A stretch of DNA of 64,000 bases from an uncultured Acidobacteriota bacterium (GCA_963809485.1 CAWEJX010000007.1:32001-96000); one strand, 5' to 3'; counted from the stretch's first letter, positions 33,570 to 64,000 are shown. The notes: generated from the letters alone by a model not told the origin. Translations and numbers: made by a program.

Positions 33570-33594
33570 GATTCGGACTCCTCCACACCGGCCA

Positions 33595-35844: not shown

Positions 35845-35990
35845 CAAGAAGCCTGAAGCCTGAAGTTAGAAGCCGGAAGAGAAGATTGATTATCCCGATG
35901 CATCACCAGGTAGCGGAAGCGTGACAGCCGTGACCGTCAACCGGAAGGCTATTCCGGCTGCCGATTTCTGACTCCGGGCTCTTTGCTTCT
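35845..35990. repeat. Degenerate heptamer (GAAGCCT-type) repeat with loose inverted partner in the mptG-mtd spacer
   Basis: CAAGAAGCCTGAAGCCTGAAGTTAGAAGCCGGAAG ... TTTCTGACTCCGGGCTCTTTGCTTCT. Confidence 0.4.
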
Positions 35991-36053
35991 ATGATGAACC
36001 AGATTCAGACCAGGCCCCGAATAACGGAATGCGGCCGCAAGTTCGTGAGGCAC

Positions 36054-41932: not shown

Positions 41933-42415
41933 TTACATGAAGGCCTTGATCAGCTCGGTCTGAATGGATTTAAGACTTGAATTTGCCTGATCCAGTTCCG
42001 CGATCTTTGTCTCGAGAGCGCGTATCAGGGCGCGCTTCTCGAGGCCGTTCTTGACCGCCACCAGCAGGTTGTCGTTGTCCCAGGGTTTTTCGATGTACTG
42101 GTAAAGGCCCACGGTATTTATAGCCCGGATTGCGTTTGCCTTGTCCGCGTATCCGGTCAGAAGCACGCGCACCGCCTGCGGCTGTATTTCCTTAAACCGG
42201 GAGAGAAACGTGATTCCATCCATTTCAGGCATCAGGTAATCCGTAATAACCAGATCAATTGCCCGGCTCCCGGCATCCGCAAGTGCGGCGCTGGCTGAGG
42301 TGTGGACGATGACGCTGTAGTCAGACCGCAGAAGAAACAGGTTGCGCAACGCTATCGTCACAAGCTCCTCGTCATCCACAATCAGCACGGTCGGCCTGTA
42401 TTCATCCATCGTCAT
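41933..42415 (-). CDS. Response regulator receiver with short coiled-coil tail
   Basis: LIVDDE, ITDYLMPEMDG, LLTGY, EKPW. Confidence 0.92.
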   Translation of the reverse strand: MTMDEYRPTVLIVDDEELVTIALRNLFLLRSDYSVIVHTSASAALADAGSRAIDLVITDYLMPEMDGITFLSRFKEIQPQAVRVLLTGYADKANAIRAINTVGLYQYIEKPWDNDNLLVAVKNGLEKRALIRALETKIAELDQANSSLKSIQTELIKAFM

Positions 42416-42446: not shown

Positions 42447-42878
42447 CTAGGCATCTTTGTCCAAAGCCACGGCGAGTTCGCGCAGTCGCTGGACCAGGTT
42501 ATTGAACAATCCTGCCGTAAGCTCGACATGATCCGCAAGGACATCGTAAAAATCTTCACGCGGGACAAACAGCAGGCGCGACTCTTCGACTGTTTCCGCC
42601 GTTGCCAGGCGCGGCTCGCTGTTGACAAGAGCCCACGCTCCGAATGTGCCCTGGGGCAAGACCCGGTCCAGAAAACGCCCGGCCCGGCTCATGCGCACGG
42701 AGCCCGAAACGACTATGTAAAGCCCGTCGGGAGGATCTCCTTCCGCATAAAGCCTGTGCCCGGGAGGGAAGGTGATTTCCTGCGTGATCGCCGCAAGATA
42801 CGACAGCTGTTCCAAAGTGACCTGCGAAAAAAGATCAACGTCCTGAAGGAACAGGGTTTTTTCCAAATTTGTCAGCAT
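42447..42878 (-). CDS. Stand-alone cyclic-nucleotide-binding-domain protein
   Basis: LEKTLFLQDVDLFS, EGDPPDGLYIVVSG, FG..AL..EPRLATA; AAAGGA RBS. Confidence 0.88.
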   Translation of the reverse strand: MLTNLEKTLFLQDVDLFSQVTLEQLSYLAAITQEITFPPGHRLYAEGDPPDGLYIVVSGSVRMSRAGRFLDRVLPQGTFGAWALVNSEPRLATAETVEESRLLFVPREDFYDVLADHVELTAGLFNNLVQRLRELAVALDKDA

Positions 42879-45660: not shown

Positions 45661-46127
45661 CGATCTCCTCTGCACCCCCGAAAACCGGAGTGCTCAGACG
45701 GCGCAACGTGTTTCCGCTCTCATTCCGGATTCCGCAACCAGCCCATTTCCTGCACCCCATCCGGGCGGCATGCGGTTCCCGGCGCTCCAAAGCTCCGTGC
45801 GGTGAGTTCCAGATATCATTTCATGCCCCCCCAGGCCGGAGGATCGCCGGACTGATCCGGGACCCGGTTTTGATGTCCACAGGCGGGCGTAAGGTTAGGA
45901 GCGAGAAGCACCTGAACAAACCCGGGCTTCTCGAGGAATAGCGGGCAAGGATTTCGAGGTGAGGGGGAGACCCGGTCCCTCCAGACTACGCCCAATAACA
46001 CTAATGTAATATCGCCAGCGGCGTTTGTGAAACGCCCCTGTCAAAAAATATGCAAGCCGGGAAGCCACAGGCCCTTGCCTTTCCTGATGCATCATGAAAT
46101 TCTTACTCTATTGGTGGCCTGTGGCCT

Positions 46128-48023: not shown

Positions 48024-48060
48024 GCTGCATGTCCGTCAACAGATTCCCGGCAGAGTTGGG

Positions 48061-48463
48061 AGTCAGGTATCTCCGGCAAAGCCGGAGGCTTGAAAGATTT
48101 GAACCGCTCAAAGCGGTTGGAGGAGTTACGCCGGTCTTGAACGCTGACTTACGCGGGCAAAAGCCGATGAGGCGCTTCCGAGCCCCGCAGGGGCCAGCGC
48201 TCCGCGCTGGACAGTTTTCTGCGGCGGTTCTGTGGCAAGCGCCGTGCGGCAAGGAGATGAAGAGTAGGAGAAACCGGGCGTTTGCCACAGTGCCGCCACA
48301 GAAAACTCCATCGGAAGCGCCTCATCGGCTCTTGCTCGCCGACCCTCGCCGAACAAATCGGCGTTTGTCAGCGCTTTTATCCGCGTTTCTCAGCGTTTCA
48401 AAATACGGAGCTGTCAAACTCTTTGAGTCCCCCGGCAGAGCCGGGGCTTTACCAATGTAATTA
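48061..48463 (-). mobile_element. IS200-like non-autonomous element, full-length ~400-bp copy
   Basis: AGTCAGGTATCTCCGGCAAAGCCGGAGG ... CCCCCGGCAGAGCCGGGG..ACCAATGTAATTA with nested internal inverted repeats. Confidence 0.85.
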
Positions 48464-48564
48464 GCGATGCATTCAGGCGCCGGATGCTTGGCGCTGCTCT
48501 AGATTCCTTTGCCGCGGGATTGATGTAGCCGCCCGGTCGCTTTACTCCTATAATCGCCGTTTAT

Positions 48565-50628
48565 ATGCAGAAAGACCTGTTGCTTCCGCCGAGTGAGATT
48601 CCGCAAAAAAAAGCCTGGAAATCCTGGAAAGGAATCGTGCTCGCTGCCTTTGTGCTTGCGCTTGTCTTCAACCGATGGCTGCCGGATATCCTGCTTGCGG
48701 TGTTTTATATCGCGGGAACGGCCGTAATTCTCAACTTGCTTTTTCACCTGCTCCGCCGTTTCAGGAACAAGGTTTTCTGGCGCGTGCGCCACCGCATCCT
48801 CGGCTCATTTATATTCGTGGGTTTCATTCCCCTCCTGGTCCTTTTCGGTGTCGCCTATCTCTCCATCTACCTGCTGCTGGGCCAGCTGTCGGCTCATTAC
48901 CTGCATGCTTCGCTGGACGAATTGAATCAGGAAGTCACTCGAATCAACACGGACCTAGGGCATCGGATTGCTCCACCGGCAGCTGGCGATGCCTTCCGTA
49001 AGGCGGCGGAAAAGGAATTCGAGGCAAATGCGGCAGCCTTCCCGAAGCTTGCAGCCCTGCTGTTGCGCAGGCAGCGTGAGGGCTCGTGGGAAAAGATCGG
49101 GAGCAATGATACCCAGGGAATCCTCGATGAATCCGCTGCTCCCGCTGCGGACAAGTGGCTGCAGGGCAAAACGGCTTTCGAGGGCCTGCTCCTTTTAAAG
49201 GAAACCGGTTTGCTGACTTCCCTCAGGCCGGCGTCTTCCGTCCCGGGTGCTTACCTTGCCGTTTTTGCGCCCCTCGACCTGCACGTCGAAGAAAGGCTCC
49301 GGCGGGAGAAGAACATATACCTGGCATTATCGGGGATGGGCACGACAGAGGTCCTGCAGAGAGAGGACGGCATTACGGTCCGGACGCGAAACGAAGGCGC
49401 CGGCAGCAGCGAAGCCGAAAGGAGCGCCGAAATCGGCGCCCTCAAAGAGCAGCTCAAGACCGACACCCGGAGGATGATCATCTGGGCGGCCGTGCTGGAA
49501 TGCCGGGACTATATAACCGGGGAAACGAAACCTCTCGGGCTCGGAGTCATTCGCGTCCCGCTTGAGACACTTAATCTGGCTTATCTATCAGGTGTCGGCA
49601 ACTACAGCACCGGCCAGTACATTCTGAAGGGCATTCTGGTTCTCCTTGCGGTGTTTGTTCTGGCGGAACTGGTCTCCCTCCTGATAGGAATCACCATCAG
49701 CCGGCGCATTACGCGTTCGGTGCACGACATGTACCTCGGCACAATGGCTTTAAAGGATGGGAACCTGCAGTATCAGATCCCGGTGCGAAGGAATGATCAG
49801 CTGGGGCTGCTGGCTCATTCTTTCAACCAGATGAGCTCCTCGATAACCCGGCTAATGGAAGAGGTGAGCGAAAAGAAAAGGCTGGAACAGGAACTGGAGA
49901 TCGCGCGCGAGGTGCAGGCTGCGCTGTTCCCCAAGCAGCTGCCGCATCCGCGCGGTCTCTCGCTTTTCGGAGGCTGCGAGCCGGCGCGCGTCGTCAGCGG
50001 CGATTACTATGATTTCATACACGAAGACGATGCCCGGCTCCATATTGTTGTCGGAGACATCAGTGGAAAAGGGATCTCCGCTGCGCTGCTCATGGCCAAT
50101 CTCCAGGCGGCCATGCGCAATCAGCTTTCAACCTTCCACAATGCCGATCCGGCCGAAATTGAACGCCGGCTTTCGGCCGTCCTGGAACAGCTGAACACCC
50201 AGATCTTTCTGAACAGCCCGAGAGAGAAATACGCGACCCTGTTTGCGGGAAGGTATGATGCCGAGTCCCGCAGGCTTTGCTACTGCAACGCCGGACACCT
50301 TCCGCCTGTTCTGCTCCGCCGCGGCGAGGTGGTACGCCTCGAGGGCGGCGGTACGGTACTCGGCCTTTTCGAGAGCGCCTCCTACAAAGCCTCATCCACG
50401 GAGCTGGAGGCCGGAACGGTCCTGGCAATTTTTTCCGACGGCATCACCGAGGCCGTCAACGATGCGGACGAAGAATTCGGCGAAGAACGCCTGGTGGAAG
50501 CGCTTCGGGCATCGGTGTCCCGAGCTCCCGAGGGTATCTACCGGCACGTAATCGAGCAGGTGCGGCTCTGGCAGGGCAATCTGAAGCAGCACGACGACAT
50601 CACATTGATCGTCGGGAAAGTGGAATAG
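48565..50628 (+). CDS. Membrane HAMP + SpoIIE/RsbU (PP2C) phosphatase
   Basis: DQLGLLAHSFNQM, AREVQ, SGDYYDF, GDISGKG, NAGH, SDGITE, DDIT. Confidence 0.92.
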   Translation: MQKDLLLPPSEIPQKKAWKSWKGIVLAAFVLALVFNRWLPDILLAVFYIAGTAVILNLLFHLLRRFRNKVFWRVRHRILGSFIFVGFIPLLVLFGVAYLSIYLLLGQLSAHYLHASLDELNQEVTRINTDLGHRIAPPAAGDAFRKAAEKEFEANAAAFPKLAALLLRRQREGSWEKIGSNDTQGILDESAAPAADKWLQGKTAFEGLLLLKETGLLTSLRPASSVPGAYLAVFAPLDLHVEERLRREKNIYLALSGMGTTEVLQREDGITVRTRNEGAGSSEAERSAEIGALKEQLKTDTRRMIIWAAVLECRDYITGETKPLGLGVIRVPLETLNLAYLSGVGNYSTGQYILKGILVLLAVFVLAELVSLLIGITISRRITRSVHDMYLGTMALKDGNLQYQIPVRRNDQLGLLAHSFNQMSSSITRLMEEVSEKKRLEQELEIAREVQAALFPKQLPHPRGLSLFGGCEPARVVSGDYYDFIHEDDARLHIVVGDISGKGISAALLMANLQAAMRNQLSTFHNADPAEIERRLSAVLEQLNTQIFLNSPREKYATLFAGRYDAESRRLCYCNAGHLPPVLLRRGEVVRLEGGGTVLGLFESASYKASSTELEAGTVLAIFSDGITEAVNDADEEFGEERLVEALRASVSRAPEGIYRHVIEQVRLWQGNLKQHDDITLIVGKVE

Positions 50629-50817: not shown

Positions 50818-51894
50818 TTACCAGCGGATGGTCACGTTGTACGAGCCACTATTGTCGCGGTAGTTGTCGTCGTTGACGCCTATCAGCAGCCGGCCGTATT
50901 CGTTCCGTTCTGTGTACGCGCGATTACGCGAACCGATGTACAGGGGCTCGGAGTCGCGCCCGTCACGGTAGCGAATCCTGGCAATGACCGCACCAACGCC
51001 CGCATCCTTGATCGGGTAGGTCGAGCTGCTGAGATTGGCGCTTCGGTTGCCGTTCGGGCCTGTGGAGCGCCCAACGCCGTATTCAATCTGACCTTCCACC
51101 GTAATCTCAACCATCATATTGGGTTCGAGGTCAATGCCCGTGTCGGTCCACGCCTGGTTGGCGTAAAGGGTGATGGTTTTTTCGCGGCCCTGCGCGGGAG
51201 TTGTTGAACGGCGGTTCCCATCGTCGTCCGAAAAGCCGCTATCGCGACTCACGGAGACATTGACGCGAAAAGCCCCGCGTGAATTCGCCATGCTCCCATG
51301 ATTGATCGTGAAATAGAGGACGCCGTCCCGGTCCGCCACAAATTCACTCGAACGGCCTACATAGATAGGGGACGAACCGAAGCCCTGCCCGATGGTGGCG
51401 ATCAGCGCGCCGTCGTTTTCGTTCGGCATGGGCGCATTCCGATCCCGTTGCCCGCGCAAACCGTCCGCACTCACCGTCGTGCGGCCGTCCAGAGTCACGG
51501 TTCCGCTGGCTTCCACCCGCACCTGCTGGCCTTCATAAACTTCAATCGGGGAACGAACCCACCGGCTTCCCAGATTAACATCGAAGCTTTCGGAAGTCTC
51601 CCATTGGCCCCGCCCCGAAAAGGTGGAAGCATCCCCTTCCCGCCGATATTCGGAGTCGCGCGGTCCCGGTTGGGCCGTGGAGCGGTCCAGAACCAGTCGC
51701 TCCACGCGTTCGGTCTTGAATTTGACCCGGTTGCCGTTGGTCAATTCAAAGATAAACTCGCCATTTTCATATCCAAGGAGAGTGCCTTTCCGCTCCCTAG
51801 CGTTTTTAAGATAAATCGTGTCGGCCAGGGCTGCGCCCGTCACGAACAATAGCAGTACAAGCGTGATCGCAGATTTTCGCATCATCCAATTCAT
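50818..51894 (-). CDS. Secreted protein with two LecA/PA-IL-like beta-sandwich repeats
   Basis: Signal peptide; repeated W..T/S.I.....G..GA(L/V)IA.I....YVG....G.L...(I/V)N...N.G motif. Confidence 0.65.
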   Translation of the reverse strand: MNWMMRKSAITLVLLLFVTGAALADTIYLKNARERKGTLLGYENGEFIFELTNGNRVKFKTERVERLVLDRSTAQPGPRDSEYRREGDASTFSGRGQWETSESFDVNLGSRWVRSPIEVYEGQQVRVEASGTVTLDGRTTVSADGLRGQRDRNAPMPNENDGALIATIGQGFGSSPIYVGRSSEFVADRDGVLYFTINHGSMANSRGAFRVNVSVSRDSGFSDDDGNRRSTTPAQGREKTITLYANQAWTDTGIDLEPNMMVEITVEGQIEYGVGRSTGPNGNRSANLSSSTYPIKDAGVGAVIARIRYRDGRDSEPLYIGSRNRAYTERNEYGRLLIGVNDDNYRDNSGSYNVTIRW

Positions 51895-52117
51895 CCGCCG
51901 CCTGAGACTTGATGGGTCTCAGGAACGAATGCCTCCGCAAAATAGTTCTCCTGCCTGATGAATCGACACATTGTCCAGCAAACCCCTGATTTTCTGAAGT
52001 ATAGCACAAGAACGGGATTATGCGGCCGAGCGCAGACCTCCCCCTAACCGACAAAATTTGAGCTCATTTTGCACCGGCAAGCTGTATGATATGAGAAATT
52101 GATTCCCGGAGGCATTC

Positions 52118-52540
52118 ATGGCTACAAAAACCGTATTGCTTGTTGACGACGACCAGGATTTGATCGACATCTATAAAACCATTCTCGAACACGCGGGCTT
52201 TACGGTCCTTACCGCGGCCAACAGCGCGCAAGCCTTGCCTATTGCGACCTCAAAACCAATCGATGTTGCTGTCCTGGATGTAATGATGGATACACCCACC
52301 GAGGGATTTGAACTTGCACGCGCAATGCGGCAGAATGAGAAGACCAGTCGTATCCCGCTCCTGATGCTGACCTCTGTCAACACTCACAATGAGGAGATAG
52401 GCTCTTTCGTGCGCTTCTCGGACCGCGACCGCGATCATACATGGCTGCCAGTGGATCGTTTTCTGGACAAGCCTATCAAGCCTGAGGATCTCGTCGCCAT
52501 CGTCCGTACGCTTTCCGGCGCGTGGTCCTTTTCCCGCTGA
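52118..52540 (+). CDS. Single-domain response regulator
   Basis: LLVDDD, LDVMMD..EGF, LMLTS, WLPVDRFLDKP. Confidence 0.92.
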   Translation: MATKTVLLVDDDQDLIDIYKTILEHAGFTVLTAANSAQALPIATSKPIDVAVLDVMMDTPTEGFELARAMRQNEKTSRIPLLMLTSVNTHNEEIGSFVRFSDRDRDHTWLPVDRFLDKPIKPEDLVAIVRTLSGAWSFSR

Positions 52541-52875
52541 TCCGGGCAGAGGCGATAAATAAACTCGCAATACTCAAATCCTCTGCGAGAGTCACGGAGT
52601 TTGATAGTTCCAGGATTATTGAACGCCGATATACGCTGAATAAACGCTGCTCAATAATACAATGGTTGGCGTTCAAGCGCCGATGAAACTATCGCATCAC
52701 AGCATATCCGCGATGGCTACCCGTTTCAGCCTACGGGCCTGAGTCAATCATTCTGAAACCTGAAATCCCTGATCCTCAAACCAGTCCATTAATATTGCCT
52801 GAGCCGCAGCGATGAGAAAGCTGTGAAAGAAGCAGAGTAATTAACCAGCCTCCCCCATAAACTATTGATATAAAT

Positions 52876-52999
52876 AGTCAGGCACCTCCGGCAAAGCCCA
52901 AGGCTTGAATGATTGGAACCGCCCAAAGCGGTTGGAGGCGTTACGATGGTCTTGAACGCTGACTTACGCGGCAGAGCCGTGGGTTTATCAATGGAATTA
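52876..52999 (-). mobile_element. Internally deleted copy of the IS200-like element abutting the rex promoter
   Basis: AGTCAGGCACCTCCGGCAAAGCC...AACCGCCCAAAGCGGTT...GCTGACTTACGC|GGCAGAGCCGTGGGTTTATCAATGGAATTA. Confidence 0.75.
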
Positions 53000-53009
53000 A
53001 ATTTTTTTA

Positions 53010-53054
53010 TTGACAAATACTGTGAAATATTTCACAATGCGTATTGTTTCACAA
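53010..53054 (+). promoter_or_regulatory. sigma70 promoter overlapped by Rex operator(s)
   Basis: TTGACA at 53010, CACAAT 17 bp later; CTGTGAAATATTTCACAA (53020-53037) matches Rex consensus TTGTGAA-N4-TTCACAA at all but one position; second TTCACAA half-site ends at 53054. Confidence 0.85.
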
Positions 53055-53068
53055 AGGAATGATTCAAA

Positions 53069-53719
53069 GTGAAGGCAGTGCCGCATCGAACGGTTGGCAG
53101 GCTCACGCTTTACTGGCGGACGCTTAGGGATATTGCCCGCGGGGACCAAAGCCATATCTATTCCCATTTTCTCGCCTCCCGATGCGGCGTGACTGCCGCC
53201 CAGGTGAGACGTGACCTCATGGTACTCGGCTATACGGGAACCCCTGCCCGGGGCTATGATGTCCGCAAACTCAAGGATCATATTGAAGCCTTCCTTTTCC
53301 CGGCTGAGGAGCAAAAGGCCGTGCTGGCAGGCGTCGGCAATATCGGCCGCGCCCTGCTGAAGTTTTTCAGCGCACGGCGTCCCGCACTTCGCATTGCAGC
53401 CTCTTTTGAAACCAATCCCGATAAATTCAACCGCGTGATCCAGGGCTGCCCTTGCCATTCCATCGAGAAGGCCGAGGGCATCATCCGTGATCTGGGCGCT
53501 ACGGTTGGGATTATGGCCGTTCCGGACGAGGAAGCCCAATTCGTGGCTGATGTATTTGTAGCCTCAGGCATACGCGGGATTCTGAACTTCGCCCGTGCTC
53601 CGCTGAGCGTCCCGCCCGGTGTTTATGTCGAGGATATTGATTTAGCCATGTCCATGGACAAGGTAGCGTATTTCGCGCGCCAGTCCCTGAAGTCGGACAG
53701 ATCAAAGGCAGTTCATTAA
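53069..53719 (+). CDS. rex: Redox-sensing transcriptional repressor Rex
   Basis: TVGRLTLY, AQVRRDL, GYDV, GVGNIGRAL, GILNFA. Confidence 0.93.
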   Translation: MKAVPHRTVGRLTLYWRTLRDIARGDQSHIYSHFLASRCGVTAAQVRRDLMVLGYTGTPARGYDVRKLKDHIEAFLFPAEEQKAVLAGVGNIGRALLKFFSARRPALRIAASFETNPDKFNRVIQGCPCHSIEKAEGIIRDLGATVGIMAVPDEEAQFVADVFVASGIRGILNFARAPLSVPPGVYVEDIDLAMSMDKVAYFARQSLKSDRSKAVH

Positions 53720-53731
53720 GGAGATCGATCT

Positions 53732-54205
53732 ATGAACGACGTGGATACCATTCTGCAGAAGCACCCGCGAGCCGGGCGCGATGCACTCATTCCTATTCTT
53801 CAGGAAGTTCAGGAGCAGCAGGGATTCATTTCGCGCGAGGCGGTCGTCCGCATCAGTAAGCACCTTAACCTGCCTGCCAGCAAGCTTTACGGGGTCGCGA
53901 CCTTTTATAACCAGTTCCGTTTTCACCCCAAAGGCAAATACCACATCATGGTCTGCCGCGGCACGGCCTGCCATGTCAAAGGGTCCAACAGGGTGCTGGA
54001 AATGGCGCAAAAACTGCTGAAGCTGAAACCGGGCCAGACGTCCAGGGACCGCCTTTTCAGCCTCGAGGTTGTTGCTTGCATGGGAGCTTGCGGCTTGTCT
54101 CCGGTTATGAACCTCAACGGAGAGTTCTACGCCAAAGTCACCCCTAAAAAAATCGTCAAAATCATACAGGAATGTAGGGAAACGGAGTCCAAAAATGGGC
54201 ACTAA
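53732..54205 (+). CDS. hydC: NuoE/HydC-like [2Fe-2S] subunit
   Basis: LIPILQEVQ, GVATFYNQF, CRGTACH, CMGAC. Confidence 0.92.
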   Translation: MNDVDTILQKHPRAGRDALIPILQEVQEQQGFISREAVVRISKHLNLPASKLYGVATFYNQFRFHPKGKYHIMVCRGTACHVKGSNRVLEMAQKLLKLKPGQTSRDRLFSLEVVACMGACGLSPVMNLNGEFYAKVTPKKIVKIIQECRETESKNGH

Positions 54206-57200
54206 TTCAGAATACTCAAAAATGGACAATTCCGGCAAATGCTGGATCGATTTCCACGAGGTTTCCGACAGCCTGCTGGCCGATCTCAAAGCGGAGCCTT
54301 TTTTAAGCGCCCGGGCAAAGGGAGCAAAGGTAACAGCATCGGTACTGGCCGGTTTGAGGCGCGAGTCCGTCGAGCGCCCCGTGATTTTTGTGGGTGCAGG
54401 CACCTGCGGGCTGGGTGCGGGAGCTGCCAAAACAATCGCGGCCGTTAAAGACTTCCTCGCGCAGCATCAGCAAACCGCCGATGTCGTCGAGGTCGGCTGC
54501 AACGGAATGTGCTCGGACGAGCCCATCGTCGACATCCAGGTCCCCGGCCGGGCTCGCGTCAGTTTCGGCACGATCACCGGAGACAAAGTGCCTGGACTGC
54601 TCGAAGCCGTACTCCTGCAGAACCGCATCCCCGCAGAACTGGTTCTCGGTCAGTACCGCTCGACCTGCGCAAAACCGTGGGAGGGTGTCCCATCTTTGGA
54701 TGAGCACCCCTTTCTTGCGCACCAGGTCCGCGTGGTTCTGGCAACCAGCGGCATTATCGATCCGGGAAATATCTCCGAATACATTGCCCGAGGCGGTTAC
54801 AGTTCCATTGCCAAGGTTCTGAGGACCATGACCCCGGAGCAGGTCTGCGACCAGATTGAAGCCAGCGGGCTCCGGGGACGCGGCGGCGGCGGATTCCCTA
54901 CCGGCAAAAAATGGAAGTTCGCCCGGGCCGCTGTCTCGGATCAGAAATACCTGATCTGCAACGCGGACGAGGGGGATCCCGGAGCTTTCATGGACCGCGC
55001 CGTCTGCGAAAGCGATCCGCACCGGCTGCTGGAGGGCATGCTGATCGCGGCCTATGCCATCGGCGCCACCAAGGCCTACATTTATATCCGCGCCGAATAT
55101 CCGCTGGCGATCAAGCGCCTCAACGAAGCCTTTGAACAGGCCGAAGCCTGCGGCCTGATCGGCTACAACATTCTCAACAGCGGCGTCGATCTCTCAATCA
55201 AACTCAAAATGGGGGCGGGCGCTTTTGTGTGCGGGGAGGAGACCGCGCTCATCCACTCGATCGAGGGCAAGCGCGGCATGCCGCGCCCCCGGCCTCCTTT
55301 CCCGGCCGTTCAGGGGCTTTTCGGCAGGCCGACGGTCATCAACAATGTTGAGACCCTGGCCAACCTGCCCCTGATCATGGATCACGGCCCGGACTGGTAT
55401 GCCGCGATGGGAACCCAAGGCAGCAAAGGAACGAAGGTATTCGCTCTTTCCGGAATGGTGCGGCGGACGGGTCTGGTTGAAATTCCGATGGGGACCTCCC
55501 TGCGCGAAGTCGTCTTCAATATCGCCGGCGGAATCCCCAATAACAAGAAATGCAAAGCCGTACAGATCGGCGGTCCTTCGGGCGGGTGCGTGCCTGAGGA
55601 ACACATGGACATACGCACGGACTACGAAGAGCTCAAGCAGTTCGGCACCATCATGGGATCCGGCGGTCTGGTTGTGGTCGACGAGTCCACGTGCATGGTC
55701 GATTTTGCCAAGTTTTTCATGGAATTCATCCAGAACGAAAGCTGCGGCAAATGCATCCCATGCCGCGAGGGTACGCGCCGGATGCTCGAGATCCTCGAAG
55801 CGGTGACCCGCCCGCGCCGTAAAGAGGACGACCTCGACGCTTTACTGCGCGTCCAGGGGATCATGCACCTGCAGAAGCTTGGGGAAACCATACGCGCCAC
55901 AAGCCTGTGCGGCCTGGGCCAGTCTGCCCCCAATCCTGTGCTGAGCACGCTCAAATGGTTCCGCGACGAGTACGAGGCTCACATATTCGAGCGCCGCTGC
56001 CCGTCCGGTTCCTGTAAAGAGCTGGTGGGAGCTCCCTGCCAGAACGGGTGCCCGATCGGGACCGAAGTCTGGCGTTATGTCGCCCATATTTCGCGGGGAG
56101 AGTACGACGATGCATACCGCGTCATCCGCGAAGCCAATCCGTTCCCGTCCGCCTGCGCCCGTGTATGCCATCATCCCTGCGAACAGGTTTGCCGCGCCGG
56201 CGCAACCGGAGGCGAGCCGATCGCGATCCGGACGCTCAAGCGCTTTGTGGTCGACACGGTGACTCCGCCCGATAAACTCGCGGTCCTGATGACTCGCTCG
56301 GATGCAGCCCGTATCGCCGTAATCGGCGCCGGGCCGGCGGGCCTGACGGCCGCCAATTCCCTTTCAGTCCTCGGCTATAAGGTCACCCTGCTCGAACGTG
56401 AGGCACAGGCCGGAGGGATGCTTTTCGCCGGGATCCCAGAATACAGGCTTCCCCGGGAAGGGATCCGGAAGGAAATCGCGGCTCTGATGAATCCCAACAT
56501 CGACGCGAAGTTCGGGCAAGCCCTGGGCCGCGACTTCACGATCGACAAGCTGTTAGAGGATGGCTATAAAGCCGTATTCATCGCCACAGGATCGCACCTC
56601 AGCAAGAAACTCGACCTGCCCGGGCGAAGACGTACCCGGGATCCTGCCCGGCATCGAGTTCCTCAAGGCATATAACCTGCACGGCAAATCTCTCGCGCGC
56701 GGGCACGTGGGGATCGTTGGCGGCGGCAACTCGGCCATGGATGCGGCCCGTGTGGCGATCCGCCAGCAGGGTGTGGAAAGCGTCACCGTATTTTACCGCC
56801 GCACGCGGGACAACATGCCCGCCTACAGGGAGGAGGTCGAAGCCGGGCTGGCTGAAGGCGTTATCCTGGAAACGCTGGTCACGCCCGTGGCCGTTCTCAG
56901 CAAGGACGGCCATCTGATCGGCATTCGCTCCCTTCGCAACGAACTGGGCGCCCGGGATTCCTCGGGCCGCCGCAGGCCCGTACCCATCAAAGGCTCCGAA
57001 TTCGACACAGCCCTGGACACGCTGATCGTGGCTATCAGCGAGGAACCCGAATCCGCCGGCCTGGAAGAGATCGGACGGACAAAATGGGGCACGATTGCGA
57101 TCAATTCCGAGTCGTTTATTACCGATCGGCCCGGCGTTTTCGCCGGCGGCGACGTGGTGACCGGCCCGAGCACCGTGATCGCCGCAATCGCCGTAGGCAA

Positions 57201-57468
57201 GCAGGCAGCAACGATGATCGACCGCTACGTTTCCGGCAAGCTTATGAAGGTACTGCCCAAGGTCAAGCTCCCTTCCGTCTATGTGGAACCGTATATGGAT
57301 GTGGACGAGGAAACCGGTGAAGTCTTCCGGCTGGAGGTGCCGTTACTCCCTGTGATAGAGAGGAAGAAATGTTTCGCCGAAGTGGAGTTGTGCCCCACCG
57401 AGCAGCAGGCCCTCGCAGAAGCGCGGCGATGCGCGCGCTGCGATCTGGACTTCACACAAGTGCAGTGA
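54195..57468 (+). CDS. hydB: NuoF/HydB-like flavoprotein fused to a GltD/NfnB-like FAD oxidoreductase; +1 frameshift near 56622-56624
   Basis: Thioredoxin-like FeS (GTCG..GCNGMC), GRGGGGFPTG, NADEGDPG, GAFVCGEET, CGKCIPC..C, then PCQNGCP..VCHHPCE..C, GAGPAG; second frame GEDVPG, GGGNSAMD, YRRTR, FAGGD, EARRCARCD. Confidence 0.88.
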
Positions 57469-57497
57469 CCGTATCGACACATGGATTGAGGTGACAC

Positions 57498-59213
57498 ATG
57501 ATAGAAATGCAAGTGGATGGCAGGATGATTGAAGCCCGGGAAGGCGAGACGATCCTCTCGGCCTTGAAACGGGAAGGAGTTCATGTCCCGACGCTGTGCA
57601 GCATGGAAGGGCTTCTGCCGAGCGGCGCATGCCGGATGTGCATAGTGGAAATGGAGGGGCCGGGCAACTTTGTCCCCGCATGCTCCTTTCCGGTCGCCCC
57701 GGGGATGAAGATTCTGACACGGTCGCCGAAAGTGCTGGACGCCCGCAGGACGATCGTGGAATTGCTTCTCAGCAATCACCCGGATGACTGCCTGTACTGC
57801 TCCCGGAGCGGGAAATGCGACCTGCAGAAGCTCTCCCAGGACATGGGCATCCGCGAGCGTCTGTACCGCGGCAAGCGGAATGAAAGGGAGAAGGACGTAT
57901 CCGGACCCATTATCCGGGATCCCGATAAATGCATCCTGTGCGGCCGCTGCGTACGCATTTGCGAAGAAGTCCAGGCCGTCGGCGCCATCGATTTTGTCGG
58001 CCGCGGCTCCAAGGCGTACATCGGCACCGCATTCGACCAGGGATTGAATATATCGACGTGCATCAACTGCGGGCAGTGCATCGTAGCTTGCCCGACAGGC
58101 GCCCTCAGCGAGCGCTCGTACCTGGAGCCCGTTATTGCGGCTCTTGCGGATCCCGAAAAGCTGGTCGTTGTCCAGCACGCGCCCTCCGTCTCCGTCTCTC
58201 TGGCGGAGGAATTCGGAATGGAGCCCGGCCAGGATGTCGACGGAAAAATGGTAGCCGCCCTCAGGCGGGTGGGATTCCACCGGGTTTTCGACACGTCTTT
58301 CGCCGCGGATCTGACCATCATGGAGGAAGCTTCCGAGCTGGCTCAACGGATTCAGCAGGGAGGCAGGCTGCCGATGTTTACCAGCTGTTCCCCGGGCTGG
58401 ATCAAGTTCGTAGAGCAGTTTTATCCCGAATTCATCCCCAACCTCTCAACCTGCAAAAGCCCTCAGCAAATGCTGGGAGCCGTCATAAAGAGCTATTTCG
58501 CCAGCCGCGAGTCGATCGACCCGTCCCGCATCATCAGCGTTTCCATCATGCCCTGCACTGCCAAAAAGTTTGAGAGCGGCAGGCCTGAAATGGCGCCGGA
58601 GCATATCCCGGATGTGGATTATGTGCTCACGACCCGCGAATTGGGACAGCTGCTGCGCATGTGCGGCGTTGATCTGCCGGCGGTTGAGCCGCAGACCGCC
58701 GACACGCCTTTCGGCGAGCGTTCCACCGCCGGCAAAATCTTCGGTGCCAGCGGCGGAGTTATGGAAGCCGCCATCCGCACGGCACATTTTCTCCTGACAG
58801 GCCAGGAGCTGGCCAAACTCGAAATGCAACCGATTCGGGGCCTGAAAGGAGCCAAGGAAATCCGCGTAAAAATCGGTGACCTGGAAGTCGGAGCCGCCGT
58901 CGCCAGCGGTCTGGGCAACGCCCGCAAACTGCTGGATCAGATCCGGGCGGGCCGGAAAGACCTGCACTTTGTCGAAATAATGACCTGTCCCGGCGGATGC
59001 ATCAACGGAGGAGGCCAGCCGATCGGCGCCGATCCCAATGCGGTCCGCGCCCGAATGCAGGCGCTGTACAAAATCGACCAGACCGAAAAAGTCAGGGTCA
59101 GCCACAGGAATCCCTATATTACCCGGCTTTACGAGGAGTTCCTGGGCAAGCCGCTGGGCGAGAAGAGCCATCACCTTCTTCATACTCACTACACCTCCAG
59201 GGAAGTCCTATAA
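57498..59213 (+). CDS. hydA: [FeFe]-hydrogenase catalytic subunit, group A multimeric type
   Basis: [2Fe-2S], HxxxCxxC, 2x[4Fe-4S]; H-cluster motifs TSCSPGW, MPCTAKKFE, EIMTCPGGCINGGGQP; LLHTHY tail. Confidence 0.96.
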   Translation: MIEMQVDGRMIEAREGETILSALKREGVHVPTLCSMEGLLPSGACRMCIVEMEGPGNFVPACSFPVAPGMKILTRSPKVLDARRTIVELLLSNHPDDCLYCSRSGKCDLQKLSQDMGIRERLYRGKRNEREKDVSGPIIRDPDKCILCGRCVRICEEVQAVGAIDFVGRGSKAYIGTAFDQGLNISTCINCGQCIVACPTGALSERSYLEPVIAALADPEKLVVVQHAPSVSVSLAEEFGMEPGQDVDGKMVAALRRVGFHRVFDTSFAADLTIMEEASELAQRIQQGGRLPMFTSCSPGWIKFVEQFYPEFIPNLSTCKSPQQMLGAVIKSYFASRESIDPSRIISVSIMPCTAKKFESGRPEMAPEHIPDVDYVLTTRELGQLLRMCGVDLPAVEPQTADTPFGERSTAGKIFGASGGVMEAAIRTAHFLLTGQELAKLEMQPIRGLKGAKEIRVKIGDLEVGAAVASGLGNARKLLDQIRAGRKDLHFVEIMTCPGGCINGGGQPIGADPNAVRARMQALYKIDQTEKVRVSHRNPYITRLYEEFLGKPLGEKSHHLLHTHYTSREVL

Positions 59214-59284
59214 TGGATGCGGGCGGCTTCCGGGAGCCGCTTGTATCACCCCGGGGAGTGAAACAGGCAAGGGAGATTACGAGA

Positions 59285-59701
59285 GTGAAAAAGAAAATAC
59301 TGGCAGTGGACGACGATGTGGATCTTCTCGAACAGATGACGGCCGTGCTGGCTGCAGAGGGCTACGACGTGACCACGGCCGAAGGGCAGTCGGCCGGCGA
59401 GGAAGCCTTGCTCCGGATGAAGCCTGATCTTGCCATCCTGGATCTTATGATGGAAGAGAAGGATTCCGGCTTTGTGCTCAGCTACCAGATCAAAAAGCTT
59501 TACCCGGCTACTCCGGTAATTTTGCTGACTGCCGTCGCCGGGGCGACGGGATTAAGCTTCAGCACTCAGCATCCGGAAGAGCAGTCCTGGATCAAGGTGG
59601 ATAAAATTCTGGACAAACCCGTTCGGCCGGAGCAGCTCAAGTCCGAGGTTCGCCGCCTTCTCGGAGAAGCGCCGGAAGGCAAAGCGGGCGGTCACTCTTA
59701 A
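59285..59701 (+). CDS. Single-domain response regulator
   Basis: GTG start; LAVDDD, LDLMME..SGF, LLTAV, WIKVDKILDKP. Confidence 0.9.
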   Translation: MKKKILAVDDDVDLLEQMTAVLAAEGYDVTTAEGQSAGEEALLRMKPDLAILDLMMEEKDSGFVLSYQIKKLYPATPVILLTAVAGATGLSFSTQHPEEQSWIKVDKILDKPVRPEQLKSEVRRLLGEAPEGKAGGHS

Positions 59702-59719
59702 GCGCTATATAGGACAACC

Positions 59720-61717
59720 ATGCAAGGTGCATGCTTCGTACAGACAATAAAAGAACGGTGCCGCGTCTGTTATACCTGCGTTCGGGAATGCCCGGCCAAA
59801 GCTATTGGAATTTCCGACGGCCAGGCCCGAGTCATCCCGGAACGCTGCATAGGCTGCGGCAACTGCGCGCGCGTCTGCAGCCAGGGCGCCAAAAAAGTCC
59901 TGGACGGCACCTGCGAGGTTACGCGCCTACTCCAGGAATCCGCAAAAGTGGCCGCCATCATCGCGCCGAGCTTTGCGGCCGAGTTTGAAGAGTGCGGGTA
60001 CGAAAAGGTCGTCGGGATGCTGCGCGCCTTGGGATTTGCCTACGTCCACGAAGTCGGTTTCGGCGCCGACCTGGTCGCCCGGCGCTACCGAGAGCTTCTG
60101 GAAAAAGACACCGAAGCCAATTACATTGCCACAACCTGCCCGGCCTTGGTCGGGTACGTGGAGCGCTATTATCCGGATCTGGTACCCCGGCTGTCACCGA
60201 TTGTATCCCCCATGGTTGCCATGGCGCGTGTCCTGAGGCGTCTCTACGGACCGGACATTCCGGTCGTTTTCATTGGTCCGTGCATCGCGAAAAAGGGAGA
60301 GGCCGCCAGCGAGGCGCTGGAAGGCGAGGTCGCAGCCGTGCTTACCTTCGCCGAACTCCGGCAGATGCTGTCGCAAGCCTCCATTGAACACGAAAAAGCC
60401 GAACCCGGGGACTTTGATCCCCCGTGGAGCGGCCCCGGCGGGCTGTTCCCGATCAGCCGCGGACTGCTCCAGGCTGCCGGCATCAAGGAGGACCTGATGG
60501 ACGGCCAGGTGATGGCAACCGATGGCCGCACCAACTTTGTCGAAGCGATCCAGGCCGTCGCTTCAAACAGCCTGGATGTGCGCCTGCTGGAGGTCCTGTG
60601 CTGCAACGGCTGCGTCATGGGTGCCGGCATGACCACCAGCTCAAATCTCTTTCAGCGCCGCAGCCTGGTGGGCCGCTATGTCCAGCAGCACTGGTCGGAA
60701 TTTCGTAAAGAACAATGGGAACACGACATGGCCAGGTATTCCGACGTGGACCTCGAGCGGAACTTCCGCGCCTACGACCAGCGCGTTGCCCAGCCTTCCC
60801 GCGCCGAAATCACCGCCATTCTTGCCCGGATGGGCAAATTGAAGCCGGAGGACGAACTGAACTGCGGCGCCTGCGGCTACGATTCCTGCGTACAGCACGC
60901 CATCGCAATCCATCGTCACCTGGCAGAGACGGAAATGTGCCTGCCCTACACAATCGAAAAGCTGCGCGACACCGTCAAAGAACTTGCGGTCTCGCACGAG
61001 CAGCTCGTCAGCACCCAGGAGGCCCTCATGCATTCGGAGCGGCTCGCGAGCATGGGGCAATTGGCCGCAGGCGTAGCCCACGAGGTCAACAATCCCCTCG
61101 GCATCGTCCTGATGCATTCCTACATGCTGCTCGAGCAGGCAAATAAATTCCCGGAATGGAAAGAGGACCTCGACATGATCGTCGAGCAGGCCGACCGGTG
61201 CAAAAAGATCGTCATGCGCCTTCTGCATTTCGCCCGGCAAAACAAGGCCGTCTTCCGGAATGTGGACCTCTACAAACTGGTTCAGCACACGGTCAAGACC
61301 TACCCGTTCCCCTCCAGGGTTTCGGCGCGCGTGGAGACGACCTCCGGCGATCCGCATGTCGACCTGGACCCGGACCAGATCAACCAGGTTTTCACGAACC
61401 TCTTCAGCAACGCCTGCGATGCGATGCCGGACGGCGGCGAGCTCATAGTTGCCGTCGGAGGCAACACGGACCAGGTTTGGTTTTCAGTCAAAGATACGGG
61501 TACGGGTATTTCCAAGGAAAGCCTTGGAAAGATCTTTGAACCATTCTTCACCACAAAACAGATAGGCAAAGGGACCGGCCTTGGACTTGCGGTCAGCTAC
61601 GGCATTGTCAAGATGCACCGCGGCCAGATTTCCGCCGTGTCCAACAAAGATCCAGCTGCAGGGCCGACAGGAACCACTTTCACGGTCAAGCTTCCCCGGA
61701 AAGCTCCTGACGAATAG
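59720..61717 (+). CDS. Putative sensory (group C) [FeFe]-hydrogenase fused to histidine kinase
   Basis: 2x[4Fe-4S]; divergent H-cluster motifs [26 protein letters not shown]; Fe[12 protein letters not shown]; H-box [10 protein letters not shown]; HATPase G-boxes. Confidence 0.9.
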
Positions 61718-61750
61718 AACGGACATACATAAATGACAGAGGAGAGCGTT

Positions 61751-62134
61751 ATGGCAAAAATACTGCTTGTAGACGACGACCAGGATCTGATCGAAATGAA
61801 TAAGACCATACTGGCGCAGCGCGGCCACGTGGTGACCGTGGCATACTCTGCTGCGGAAGCCCTCAAAACCATCCAGACCGTCGCGCCTGACCTGGCGGTG
61901 CTGGACGTGATGATGGAAGACAAAACAGCCGGGTTCGACCTCGCCCGGAAGCTGCATGCGCAATTCCCCAAGATGCCGATGATCATGCTGACCGGGATTC
62001 GCAAGGAGATGGATCTCGGTTTCGGTTTCGAACCCGACGAGACCTGGCTGCCGGTCAGCAAGTTCATGGAAAAGCCGGTGAATCCGCGGATTCTCGCGGA
62101 GGAAGCAGAGAAGCTTTTGGCCGCAAACAGATAA
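61751..62134 (+). CDS. Single-domain response regulator
   Basis: LLVDDD, LDVMME..AGF, IMLTG, WLPVSKFMEKP. Confidence 0.92.
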   Translation: MAKILLVDDDQDLIEMNKTILAQRGHVVTVAYSAAEALKTIQTVAPDLAVLDVMMEDKTAGFDLARKLHAQFPKMPMIMLTGIRKEMDLGFGFEPDETWLPVSKFMEKPVNPRILAEEAEKLLAANR

Positions 62135-62339
62135 CCCAGTGGCTGTCGCCCCCTGAAACCCCTTCGCGCGCAGCGCTTGATGGAATTCGAAACCATCACA
62201 CCGCGCCCGGGGATTTGGAAACCGGGATTCATGTCTGCACCTCGGTTCGAAGCTGGAAACTCTGAACTGGGAACCGAATTTCTTAAACTATTCAGATATG
62301 AGATTTTATTAGTAAGCATATAAAGAGCGGAAGGTCGAC

Positions 62340-63485
62340 GTGGAAACACTAAACGTCATCGTGGTGGATGACGAATACGGCATGCGGCGGGGCGCCGAGC
62401 GGGTATTGAAGGACCTCACTCTCACACTGCCCGATATCAACGGCGAGGTCAAATTCGCTGTCCGCACGGCTGCGAGCGGAAAGGAACTGGAGGAGAAGCT
62501 GGCGTCGGCTCCTGCGGACATACTCCTCCTGGATCATATCCTGCCCGATACTACGGGGCTGGATATTCTCGACCGTCTCGGGCACGAGTCGCTGGATCTA
62601 TTGACCATCATGATCACGGCCTACGCTTCGCTGGAAACCGCCGTGACTGCCACCCGCCGCGGCGCCTATGATTTCCTGGCCAAGCCGTTCACGCCCGAAG
62701 AACTGCGCGGCGCCGTACGCAAGGCCGCCCGCCACCTTATTCTGCAGCGCCAGGCCCGCCGGCTTGCCGAAGAGAAGCGGCAGGTCCGGTTCCAATTCAT
62801 ATCCGTGCTCGCCCACGAGATGAAAGCCCCCATCGCGGCAATTGAAGGGTACCTTCAAATGATCCGCGAGCGCGCGATGGGCGACAGCCTGGTCGCCTAC
62901 GACCGAATGGTGGACCGGTCCCTGATCCGTATCGACGGCATGCGCAAGCTGATCGGGGATCTTCTGGACCTGACCGCCATCGAGTCCGGCCAGAGGCAGC
63001 GCACCCTCGTGACGCTGAACCTCGCCGAGGCCGCCCGCCAGGCGGTCGAAAACATGAAACCGGAGGCCGCCCGCCGCGACATACAGGTTGATATGAGCGT
63101 TCCGGATGGTCTGAACCTTGAGGCGGACAAGACGGAGATCGATATGATCTTCAATAATCTTGTTTCCAACGCCATCAAATATAACCGGGATCACGGGCGC
63201 GTTAAGGTAACCATAAGCCAGTCCGGGGATGAAATCCGCGTTCAGGTCAAGGACACAGGAATCGGCATGACCCCGGAGGAATGCAAGCGCCTGTTCAAGG
63301 ATTTCTCACGTATCAAAAACGATAAGACGCGCAACATCCTCGGCAGCGGCCTGGGCCTGTCCACCCTCAAGAAACTGGTCACGCTGTATAGCGGGGATAT
63401 TTCCGTCGAAAGCAAGCCCGATGTCGGCAGCACCTTCACGGTCCTGCTCCACAAAATCCAAAGGCCGGGAAATGAACAGGGATGA
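62340..63485 (+). CDS. Hybrid receiver-histidine kinase
   Basis: VVDDE, LLDHILPD, KPFTP; LAHEMKAP, NLVSNAIKYN, DTGIG, GSGLGL. Confidence 0.92.
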   Translation: METLNVIVVDDEYGMRRGAERVLKDLTLTLPDINGEVKFAVRTAASGKELEEKLASAPADILLLDHILPDTTGLDILDRLGHESLDLLTIMITAYASLETAVTATRRGAYDFLAKPFTPEELRGAVRKAARHLILQRQARRLAEEKRQVRFQFISVLAHEMKAPIAAIEGYLQMIRERAMGDSLVAYDRMVDRSLIRIDGMRKLIGDLLDLTAIESGQRQRTLVTLNLAEAARQAVENMKPEAARRDIQVDMSVPDGLNLEADKTEIDMIFNNLVSNAIKYNRDHGRVKVTISQSGDEIRVQVKDTGIGMTPEECKRLFKDFSRIKNDKTRNILGSGLGLSTLKKLVTLYSGDISVESKPDVGSTFTVLLHKIQRPGNEQG

Positions 63486-64000
63486 AATCCTCGCATGGCT
63501 GCTCGAAGAGAATCCGGACCGCCTGGAGACGCTCTGGAGCCTTGCCGACGGCGTTCGCCGTGACCATGTCGGGGATTCCGTTCACATCCGCGGCCTGATT
63601 GAGTTCTCAAACTATTGCAGGAGCAACTGCCATTACTGCGGGATGCGCAGCGGGCGCAGATCCCTCGCCCGGTACCGGATGACGCAGGATGAAATCCTTG
63701 ATTCAGCCCGGGAGGCCATGGCGCGGGGATACGGCACCGTCGTAATGCAATCGGGCGAAGATCTCCATCTTGAGGTCGAGTGGCTGGCAGGCGTTATCAA
63801 AAAGATCAAGCGGGAGACCCCGCTGGCCGTCACCCTGAGCCTGGGAGAGCGGGCACTGGAGGAACTTGCGCGATTGCGGGAATCCGGCGCGGATCGCTAT
63901 TACCTTCGTTTTGAAACTTCGGACAGGCTCCTGTGGAAAAGGATTCATACTTCAGACACCAGAGGTGTGCTCCATCGCCTGGATTTGCTTCCCCGTATAA
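63472..64000 (+). CDS. hydE: [FeFe]-hydrogenase maturase HydE (radical SAM), runs off window
   Basis: Manual translation MNRDEILAWL...RGLIEFSNYCRSNCHYCGMR...TVVMQSGED...TLSLGE...GADRYYLRFETSD; open to the window edge. Confidence 0.88.
   Translation, partial: MNRDEILAWLLEENPDRLETLWSLADGVRRDHVGDSVHIRGLIEFSNYCRSNCHYCGMRSGRRSLARYRMTQDEILDSAREAMARGYGTVVMQSGEDLHLEVEWLAGVIKKIKRETPLAVTLSLGERALEELARLRESGADRYYLRFETSDRLLWKRIHTSDTRGVLHRLDLLPRI

Follow-up and report, generated by a model that had tools for sequence, protein, structure and literature searches.

A probably Rex-controlled operon of an uncultured Acidobacteriota bacterium that may join a bifurcating-type [FeFe]-hydrogenase to its own putative H2-sensing kinase

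Introduction

Sensory [FeFe]-hydrogenases are common in anaerobes, and the targets that they control have so far been undefined. For the [NiFe] enzymes, the HoxJ/HoxA pathway is built of separate sensor and kinase proteins, and its output is a DNA-binding regulator of the NtrC type. Here, we describe a locus at positions 52118-64000 (+ strand) of a stretch of 64,000 nucleotides (nt) from an uncultured Acidobacteriota bacterium (GCA_963809485.1, CAWEJX010000007.1:32001-96000), further called the window, from the start of which all coordinates are counted. In this locus the genes of a Rex repressor, of a catalytic [FeFe]-hydrogenase (HydABC) and of a sensory [FeFe]-hydrogenase fused to a histidine kinase (HydHK) lie together with genes of phospho-receiver (REC) proteins.

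The described proteins closest to HydHK form HydDB group C1, 'histidine kinase-linked (putative)', whose role is listed there as undetermined (PMC5037454). Proteins of Hydrogenedentota in which a hydrogenase domain (H-domain) occurs with HATPase_c are assigned to C1 in the article text of PMC11406978, 21 of the 53 being adjoined to group A3 genes, and the text of a preprint (10.1101/765248) mentions, for Elusimicrobia, a group C enzyme that is fused to a kinase and neighbours Rex and a group A enzyme of the trimeric type. HydHK is likewise an H-domain tied to a histidine kinase beside a group A3 hydrogenase, and by analogy with the architecture called C1 in PMC11406978 it can be placed in [FeFe] group C1. 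It also resembles TmHydS of T. maritima and TamHydS of Thermoanaerobacter mathranii in its N-terminal [4Fe-4S] motifs, in changes at the positions of CpI C299, M353 and M497, and in an extra C-terminal [4Fe-4S] motif (PMC10055695, PMC13104023). However, TmHydS and TamHydS have a PAS domain after the C-terminal cluster and are linked to phosphatases or to no kinase, whereas in HydHK the C-terminal cluster motif passes straight into the kinase helix; their outputs are, in the same two sources, equally undefined. In outline, the system is similar to the [NiFe] regulatory hydrogenase (HydDB group 2b), where a hydrogenase-like sensor controls a kinase governing hydrogenase genes (PMC5037454). The HoxJ/HoxA-linked sensor, unlike HydHK, has an unrelated metal centre and belongs to an unrelated protein family.

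Some receivers exert their output by protein contact, through the face beside the phospho-accepting aspartate, as CheY does on the flagellar switch and DivK on kinases. We propose that REC2, a single-domain receiver of the locus, acts by docking in a similar manner; another of its proteins, REC-HK, is a receiver-kinase hybrid like Leptospira LvrB. To our knowledge, there is no precedent for the NADH-binding subunit of a hydrogenase as the target of a receiver. The set of REC-only and REC-HK partners, the operator, the HydB insertion and the docking output presented below are not described in the article texts searched. An earlier note on this DNA had stated that no defined output pathway was known for histidine-kinase-linked group C hydrogenases, which agrees both with that literature and with the role given in HydDB (PMC5037454). 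The locus is of a catalogued but unstudied kind, and its wiring differs from every characterised H2-sensing system.

Our preferred reading, which we hold tentatively and at somewhat less than an even chance, is that a Rex-controlled operon joins a bifurcating-type HydABC to its own H2-sensing unit, the output of which is exerted by REC2 on HydB. Rex would be bound to an operator inside the promoter and, as in its family, would release it when NADH rises. In HydHK, the putative H-cluster has sensory-type surroundings, and C407 begins a long helix that in the model runs into the phospho-accepting His454, so the redox state set by H2 may tune autophosphorylation directly, with no PAS domain in between. 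The NtrB/AtoS/ZraS-like HydHK would most likely feed the NtrC-like receiver of REC-HK, the PhoR-like kinase of which would then set the phosphorylation state of REC2. REC2, which has no DNA-binding part, is predicted to dock via its phospho-Asp-side face (Trp102) on an insertion in the N3-type [4Fe-4S] domain of HydB, and this would throttle or redirect the hydrogenase post-translationally. The narrower idea that such a CheY-like protein is a phosphorylation-controlled accessory subunit of a bifurcating hydrogenase, docked beside the N3-type cluster of HydB and gating electron flow as set by an H2-sensing kinase cascade, is a doubtful one at present.

If true, this would be the first two-component system to act directly, by its output, on a hydrogenase or on flavin-based electron bifurcation, and the widespread group C1 'sensory' hydrogenases would gain a defined output. 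The circuit would receive two inputs, NADH/NAD+ through Rex and H2 through HydHK, and would act at two levels, on transcription and, possibly, on the enzyme directly. Should the docking prove genuine, fermenters and syntrophs would have a means of adjusting the production of H2 to its partial pressure within seconds, and single-domain response regulators would acquire a new class of target. The residues that we name for mutation are HydB 549-557 and R552, and REC2 D53 and W102.

Results and Discussion

Organisation of the locus

Open reading frames (ORFs), Pfam and NCBIfam bear out the order of ten genes in a single orientation that the earlier note had proposed, with gene ends at or near the places given there: REC1, rex, hydC, a hydB-GltD fusion, hydA, REC2, hydHK, REC3, REC-HK and hydE, all on the + strand. 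The features are as follows (aa, amino acids).

52118-52540, + strand: REC1, single-domain receiver of 140 aa; sole Pfam match Response_reg (7.9e-18)
53010-53038, + strand: sigma-70-like promoter, TTGACA-17 nt-CACAAT, 10 of 12 positions matching
53020-53037, + strand: putative Rex operator CTGTGAAATATTTCACAA, one mismatch to the consensus
53069-53719, + strand: rex, redox-sensing repressor of 216 aa; Put_DNA-bind_N and CoA_binding, NF003995
53732-54205, + strand: hydC, NuoE-like [2Fe-2S] subunit of 157 aa; PF01257 (6e-51), NF005722 (146.7 bits, cut-off 141)
54195-57468, + strand: hydB, NuoF core with Fer4_20 and GltD-like Pyr_redox_2, in two frames (54195-56675 and 56560-57468)
55839-55877, + strand: HydB residues 549-561 (ALLRVQGIMHLQK), insertion in the N3-type cluster domain and predicted docking site of REC2
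56616-56625, + strand: one-base insertion (frameshift) within hydB, in the run CCCGGGC
57498-59213, + strand: hydA, catalytic [FeFe]-hydrogenase subunit of 571 aa; NF040763
59285-59701, + strand: REC2, single-domain receiver at the core of the module, 138 aa; D53, T82, K111, W102
59720-61717, + strand: hydHK, sensory [FeFe]-hydrogenase-histidine kinase fusion of 665 aa
61733-62134, + strand: REC3, paralogous single-domain receiver of 133 aa
62135-62339, no strand: non-coding gap of 205 nt between REC3 and REC-HK
62340-63485, + strand: REC-HK, N-terminal receiver with HisKA and HATPase, 381 aa
63472-64000, + strand: hydE, radical-SAM maturase, 5' part only, the gene being cut by the window end

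The hydE ORF opens at 63421 with a likely ATG start at 63472, and the best match of this partial gene is HydE TIGR03956 (151 bits against a cut-off of 254.6). REC2 starts with GTG at 59285, preceded by GGGAGA. From rex to hydE the genes overlap or are separated by 12-29 nt, the sole exception being the 205 nt ahead of REC-HK, and because of these short spacers rex through hydE is likely to be one transcription unit. REC1 is separated from rex by 529 nt, with the promoter inside this distance, which amends the gene list of the earlier note. The 205-nt gap is AT-richer, no promoter-like site was called in it, and it measures 16 nt in the closest relative, L001; an Rfam scan of 51500-64000, this gap included, gave no match at E up to 0.1.

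None of the four receiver proteins has a DNA-binding output domain, the only extra Pfam domain being the kinase of REC-HK, and Rex is the only local transcription factor; both had been claimed before. Among the large ORFs of the whole 64-kb window no sigma-54 AAA+ or DNA-binding response regulator was found. The word "phosphorelay", which had been used for the locus, proved loose: no histidine phosphotransfer (HPt) domain was matched among the eleven products scanned with Pfam, so the locus is not a canonical His-Asp-His-Asp phosphorelay, and its layout is kinase, receiver-kinase and receivers.

Recurrence of the cassette

Related loci were collected by a scan of one genome per species, from which the best 80 of at least 597 confirmed loci were taken; these are the top-scoring ones and not a random sample. 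A full-length HydHK is present in 51 of the 80, and genes were called in them by anchoring on tblastn matches. The 51 loci belong to Acidobacteriota, Planctomycetota (including a Kuenenia metagenome-assembled genome), Myxococcota, Verrucomicrobiota, Elusimicrobiota, Ignavibacteriota, Bacteroidota, Actinomycetota, Fibrobacterota, Hydrogenedentota, Spirochaetota, Bdellovibrionota and Bacillota. Conservation of the neighbourhood across genomes, a check proposed in the earlier note, was found, as the same order recurs, beyond what chance would give, in the 51 loci from these many phyla. Counting loci with enough flank, hydA lies directly upstream of HydHK in 40 of 49, hydB is upstream in 31 of 39, hydC in 32 of 39 and rex in 22 of 39; REC-HK is downstream in 44 of 47, a REC-only gene adjoins HydHK in 42 of 49, and hydB is fused to GltD in 8 of 46. 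In eight loci a REC-PAS-HK takes the place of REC-HK. The HydHK tree is not congruent with the phyla, and therefore fits transfer of the cassette.

After REC-HK, the closest relative L001 has an aspartase-like Lyase_1 gene (the ORF may also hold hydG) and then hydF, followed by unrelated genes; the 10 kb downstream also encode a molybdopterin oxidoreductase and a single protein that Pfam did not match. The order is hydG, lyase, hydF in L009 and hydE, hydG, hydF in L014, while unrelated genes follow in L028; hydG lies further downstream of REC-HK in L024. Two further receiver fusions were also seen: in L008 of Myxococcota (8664-9956) the gene immediately before HydHK encodes a receiver domain together with a formate/nitrite transporter, and a receiver is joined to a glycine-cleavage H-protein domain in L011 (2099-3937).

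Predicted docking of REC2 on HydB

A REC-only gene adjoins HydHK in 39 of 39 loci with an adjacent hydA, and in 1 of 8 without it, while REC-HK is kept in both groups (47 loci, four of the 51 being dropped for short flanks; Fisher p = 1.3e-7, uncorrected). The complex of HydB (residues 1-600), HydC and REC2, each entered as an alignment, was predicted with a score of 0.62, the best of three controls reaching 0.00. In the benchmark, 116 of 157 solved complexes and 2 of 215 mismatched pairs came up to this mark. At least 95% of contacts are shared between the runs, with a partner pLDDT (predicted local distance difference test) of at least 84. We know of no solved receiver-NuoF complex that the prediction could have remembered.

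All predicted contacts on HydB fall within residues 541-561 and 594-598; those on REC2 comprise residues 58-68 and 84-103, i.e., the face beside Asp53, including Trp102. Residues 549-558 of HydB are an insertion with respect to the three solved chains aligned (7t2r_B, 9n5u_B and 9bov_B). An insertion of 8-10 residues is present in 36 of the 39 HydB encoded directly upstream of HydHK and in none of the other 14 HydB-like genes found there; measured across this site, the spacing amounts to 44-46 residues in those 36 (45 in the window) and 36 residues in all 14 others. The locus L039, whose HydHK is cut by the contig end and whose spacing is 45, was excluded from this count. Of the 41 HK-adjacent receivers, assigned by gene position, 39 have Trp102, the exceptions being L020 and L021 (Thermoleophilia), whose lineage's HydB lacks the insertion; this residue is also absent in all seven receivers that precede hydC of insertion-less second operons. 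The post-translational output on the hydrogenase that had been suggested earlier is supported by computation only, through the docking, the HydB insertion and the REC/hydABC co-occurrence; an output on maturation, suggested along with it, may be an alternative.

These second operons, of the order REC, hydC, short hydB (~400 aa) and long hydA (~650-790 aa), stand beside the module in L020, L021, L023, L041, L042, L045, L024 and L008. Their receivers overlap or abut hydC and form a clade of their own. In a quick receiver tree, with support from SH-aLRT only, all single-domain receivers of the loci group together with a support of 94, and the receiver of REC-HK falls outside this clade. Within it are sub-clades of the REC2 type (37 rows, support 95), of the REC3 type (7 rows, 96), of receivers directly preceding hydC of second operons (7 rows, 98) and of receivers between rex and hydC (3 rows, 98). 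REC1 is a member of this hydrogenase-linked REC-only family on a long branch. The hydrogenase-linked receivers share a lengthened alpha4 region, TG..F......W.KAD..L.KP.

Several points weigh against an output of REC2 on HydB. Every mechanistic step is one that we infer, and the hydB of the window itself carries a frameshift. On the HydHK tree, hydA adjacency changes six times and REC adjacency five times, and a phylogeny-corrected test of the REC/hydABC co-occurrence has only 2 independent contrasts on well-supported branches, with which significance is unreachable; the co-occurrence is therefore suggestive only. All three features (insertion, Trp102, co-occurrence) could simply mark a single cassette that has been inherited or transferred whole, and the joint loss of Trp and insertion is essentially one event (Thermoleophilia) plus one paralogous clade. 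As to the prediction, a three-chain job with its own alignments differs from the calibration, so that the benchmark counts hold only roughly; HydB was truncated after residue 600 and modelled without HydA, the contacts 594-598 lie at the cut, and the holoenzyme could cover the site. Two residues of the interface, D60 and G62, are common to receivers in general. Even a genuine docking would not be universal, since the receivers directly before hydC lack the Trp and their HydB lack the insertion. A search for fusions of a receiver to HydA, HydB or HydC among longer proteins found seven candidates and no true fusion, which is weak evidence; three of the candidates, P0246-P0248, combine a receiver with hydrogenase domains, but were rejected because they resemble gene predictions that run through, or slip frame, from one gene into the next.

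Transcription or phosphate buffering as possible outputs

The best matches of the REC-HK receiver are LuxO, NtrC, FixJ, AtoC and NtrX, at family level and far below curated cut-offs, and REC-HK has an H-box (LAHEMKAPI) together with N, G1 and G2 boxes. The kinase core of HydHK best matches AtoS and ZraS in NCBIfam, also far below curated cut-offs. Since the receiver of REC-HK is NtrC-like and the kinase of HydHK is AtoS/ZraS-like, these weak family-level hints suggest signalling from HydHK to REC-HK. For the NtrC-type regulators of L048 and L056, the best match within the window is likewise the REC-HK receiver.

The same AtoS/ZraS-like core suits another reading, in which the output is transcriptional: HydHK or REC-HK would phosphorylate a DNA-binding regulator whose gene lies beyond the window and which is most likely a sigma-54 activator of the NtrC type, and the single-domain receivers would only be modulators. 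We consider this possible, if rather unlikely. In two loci of Clostridia, L048 (11931-13277) and L055 (12578-13939), an NtrC-type sigma-54 activator of REC-AAA+-HTH_8 architecture directly follows HydHK, with no single-domain receiver; L008, L011 and L056 contain NtrC-type genes at distances of up to about 6 kb, and L009 has a REC-HTH_8 gene. In two further loci of Bacillota, L058 (9965-12223) and L059 (2108-4318), the sensor (two Fer4, H-domain, PF04060) is fused to sigma-54 AAA+ and HTH_8, which would make it a one-component hydrogenase-like enhancer-binding protein. As the sensor drives sigma-54 factors in Bacillota, transcriptional output may be the ancestral or an alternative state, which is one more point against REC2 acting on HydB. 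However, HydHK (or the REC behind it) is followed by REC-HK, and not by a DNA-binding regulator, in 44 of 47 loci, the sigma-54 AAA+ domain is absent throughout the 64-kb window, and the 10 kb downstream of the module of L001 hold neither such a domain nor a DNA-binding regulator. The -24/-12 pattern (at most one mismatch) has a single match, at 51036 and off the operon, against 5.1 expected in the window. Phosphorylation by the kinase of a DNA-binding regulator encoded beyond the window was what the earlier note had named as speaking against its view; the 10 kb of L001 are in favour of that view, and the sigma-54 activators at or near HydHK in other loci are not.

It is improbable, in our opinion, that the single-domain receivers are phosphate sinks or buffers for the two kinases, a role known from other multi-kinase networks, the HydB docking being a false positive and the correlations a result of common descent. 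Three paralogous REC-only genes within one locus would fit such a role, as would correlations that are not significant once phylogeny is considered and a complex prediction outside its calibration. However, a sink should travel with the kinases, and the REC-only gene is missing in 7 of the 8 HydHK loci with no adjacent hydABC; these genes travel instead with hydC in the second operons. The predicted interface, moreover, lands on the HK-linked insertion and on the family-specific Trp.

The HydHK sensor-kinase

HydHK holds two Fer4 domains, Fe_hyd_lg_C, the PF04060 iron-sulphur (Fe-S) domain, HisKA (2.2e-11) and HATPase_c (6.4e-24) in one chain; against it, the kinase core of Leptospira LvrB (8vc9) scores 81.7 bits. 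In an alignment of 32 sequences (40-97% identity) the invariant positions are eight N-terminal cysteines, the H-cluster ligands C140, C188, C295 and C298, K191, the C-terminal C382, C385, C390 and C407, His454, and the N, G1 and G2 boxes. By alignment to T. maritima HydA, the H-cluster motifs read TTCPA, GPCIAKK and LCCNGC, and the positions of CpI C299, M353 and M497 are occupied by T139, G186 and L293; the same three positions deviate in TmHydS (PMC10055695). The authors of PMC11406978 write in the article text that the P1-P3 motifs are hardly findable in group C1. In the C1-type HydHK aligned here these motifs do exist at the sequence level, in variant form; they retain the lone Cys ahead of Pro, Cys-x2-Lys and the final two Cys.

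The AlphaFold2 model of HydHK (mean pLDDT 81.5; predicted template modelling score, pTM, 0.58) has a hydrogenase fold, and its top Foldseek matches are [FeFe]-hydrogenases. One helix, 408-472, links C407, the last cysteine of the PF04060 motif, to His454. No PAS domain was matched by Pfam, and as the model shows only helices over 300-407, HydHK appears to be devoid of one, unlike the PAS/phosphatase-linked HydS type (group C3/D). From its conserved cluster ligands and sensory-type substitutions, HydHK may sense H2. That its Fe-S chain instead makes it a sensor of the redox poise of the cell (ferredoxin or NAD(P)H), or that the protein remains unmatured, is unlikely: the two N-terminal [4Fe-4S] motifs and the C-terminal four-Cys motif are invariant, and the statement on P1-P3 in PMC11406978 would point the same way, but the four H-cluster cysteines and K191 are just as invariant, maturase genes (hydE, hydG, hydF) follow the module in the window, L009 and L014 and hydF follows Lyase_1 in L001, and related sensory enzymes bind a working H-cluster according to PMC10055695.

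The catalytic hydrogenase and the break in hydB

HydA scores 823.7 bits against NF040763 (cut-off 765) and 647 bits against T. kivui HydA1 (8a6t_A). It bears the H-cluster motifs TSCSPGW, MPCTAKKFE and EIMTCPGGCINGGGQP, an N-terminal Fe-S chain and a small-subunit-like C-terminus, and its operon is shared by a NuoF-like HydB (frameshifted) and a NuoE-like HydC, features by which group A3 is recognised. The P1 motif of HydA (58380-58400, residues 295-301) reads TSCSPGW and not TSCCP, a reading shared by 47 of the 56 HydA genes in these loci and by the solved HydA1 of A. woodii (7q4v_A); the change of Cys to Ser in P1 is recorded for Ignavibacterium (PMC3362086).

The domains of HydB are an N-terminal thioredoxin-like Fe-S domain, the NuoF core, Fer4_20 (DPD_II) and a GltD-like FAD/NAD(P) domain. 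Its scores against solved [FeFe] HydB chains are 615.2 (7q4v_B), 606.2 (8a6t_B) and 554.1 bits (7p5h_B), and the best match overall is subunit B of a [NiFe] hydrogenase, 7t2r_B (638 bits). The C-terminus, in which DPD_II and the FAD/NAD(P) domain replace the B3/B4 clusters, fits BfuB of sub-type I as described in PMC11406978. Judged from its sequence, HydABC appears to be of the electron-bifurcating type with an NAD(P)-type extension on HydB. Compared with the solved HydABC of T. kivui (8a6t), A. woodii (7q4v) and T. maritima (7p5h), the HydB of the window differs by a 9-residue insertion and by the frameshift.

The hydB gene is split over two frames by an extra base in CTGCCCGGGCGAAGAC, at about 56616-56625. 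This base is missing, as a 1-nt gap, in 4 of 4 aligned relatives; intact hydB ORFs of 1082-1090 aa are present in L001, L009, L014 and L028, and the database protein P0126, 97% identical to HydB, is intact at 1090 aa. Because the four relatives and the 97%-identical protein read in frame, the break is private to the window sequence, and it is either a sequencing error or a recent mutation or inactivation. For the same reason programmed frameshifting was set aside.

Probable Rex control

Rex scores 190.5 bits against NF003995 (cut-off 126) and has a winged-helix N-terminus and a Rossmann domain. The putative Rex box CTGTGAAATATTTCACAA differs by one mismatch from the consensus TTGTGAANNNNTTCACAA cited in PMC6391272, lies 32 nt ahead of rex and overlaps the best sigma-70-like promoter of the region; an additional half-site, TTCACAA, is found at 53048-53054. 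The Rex pattern with a 6-nt spacer gave 17 matches against 17.1 expected, i.e., chance level, while the pattern with a 4-nt spacer finds the operator. The 51 related loci, 910,092 bp in all, contain 22 Rex boxes (at most two mismatches), of which 13 sit 28-138 nt upstream of rex, in 12 of the 24 rex-carrying loci, and two others 39-56 nt upstream of hydC. The near-consensus operator in the promoter and the boxes in related loci speak for the earlier claim that transcription would be set through Rex. The same 18-bp operator consensus, autoregulation of rex and hydrogenase/maturase targets are reported for the Rex regulons of Caldicellulosiruptor (Firmicutes) in the text of PMC6391272. Unlike in those regulons, rex is here the first gene of a hydrogenase operon, in Acidobacteriota and many other phyla.

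Other genes of the window

Just upstream of the hydrogenase locus (46128-50628, + strand) lie genes of a PAS-GAF histidine kinase and of a HAMP-PP2C (SpoIIE) phosphatase. A homologue of the latter (48565-50628) is found near the module in 2 of the 51 loci: in L027 it immediately precedes rex, and in L033 it is close to HydHK. Another single-domain receiver (41933-42415, - strand) adjoins a 946-aa protein (42835-45675, - strand) that contains numerous HEAT repeats and weakly matches TLC ATP/ADP transporters. At 19412-21712 (+ strand) a 766-aa protein combines a DruA-like N-terminal region with the DNA-binding and dimerisation domains of a Tn5-type transposase. The region 21728-37151 holds, by Pfam, a one-carbon (C1) gene set of the tetrahydromethanopterin/methanofuran type, which is notable in a likely Acidobacteriota genome; its members are a 4-HFC-P synthase, an MCH cyclohydrolase, RimK and ATP-grasp ligases, a CitG-like protein, an amino-acid kinase and a GHMP kinase.

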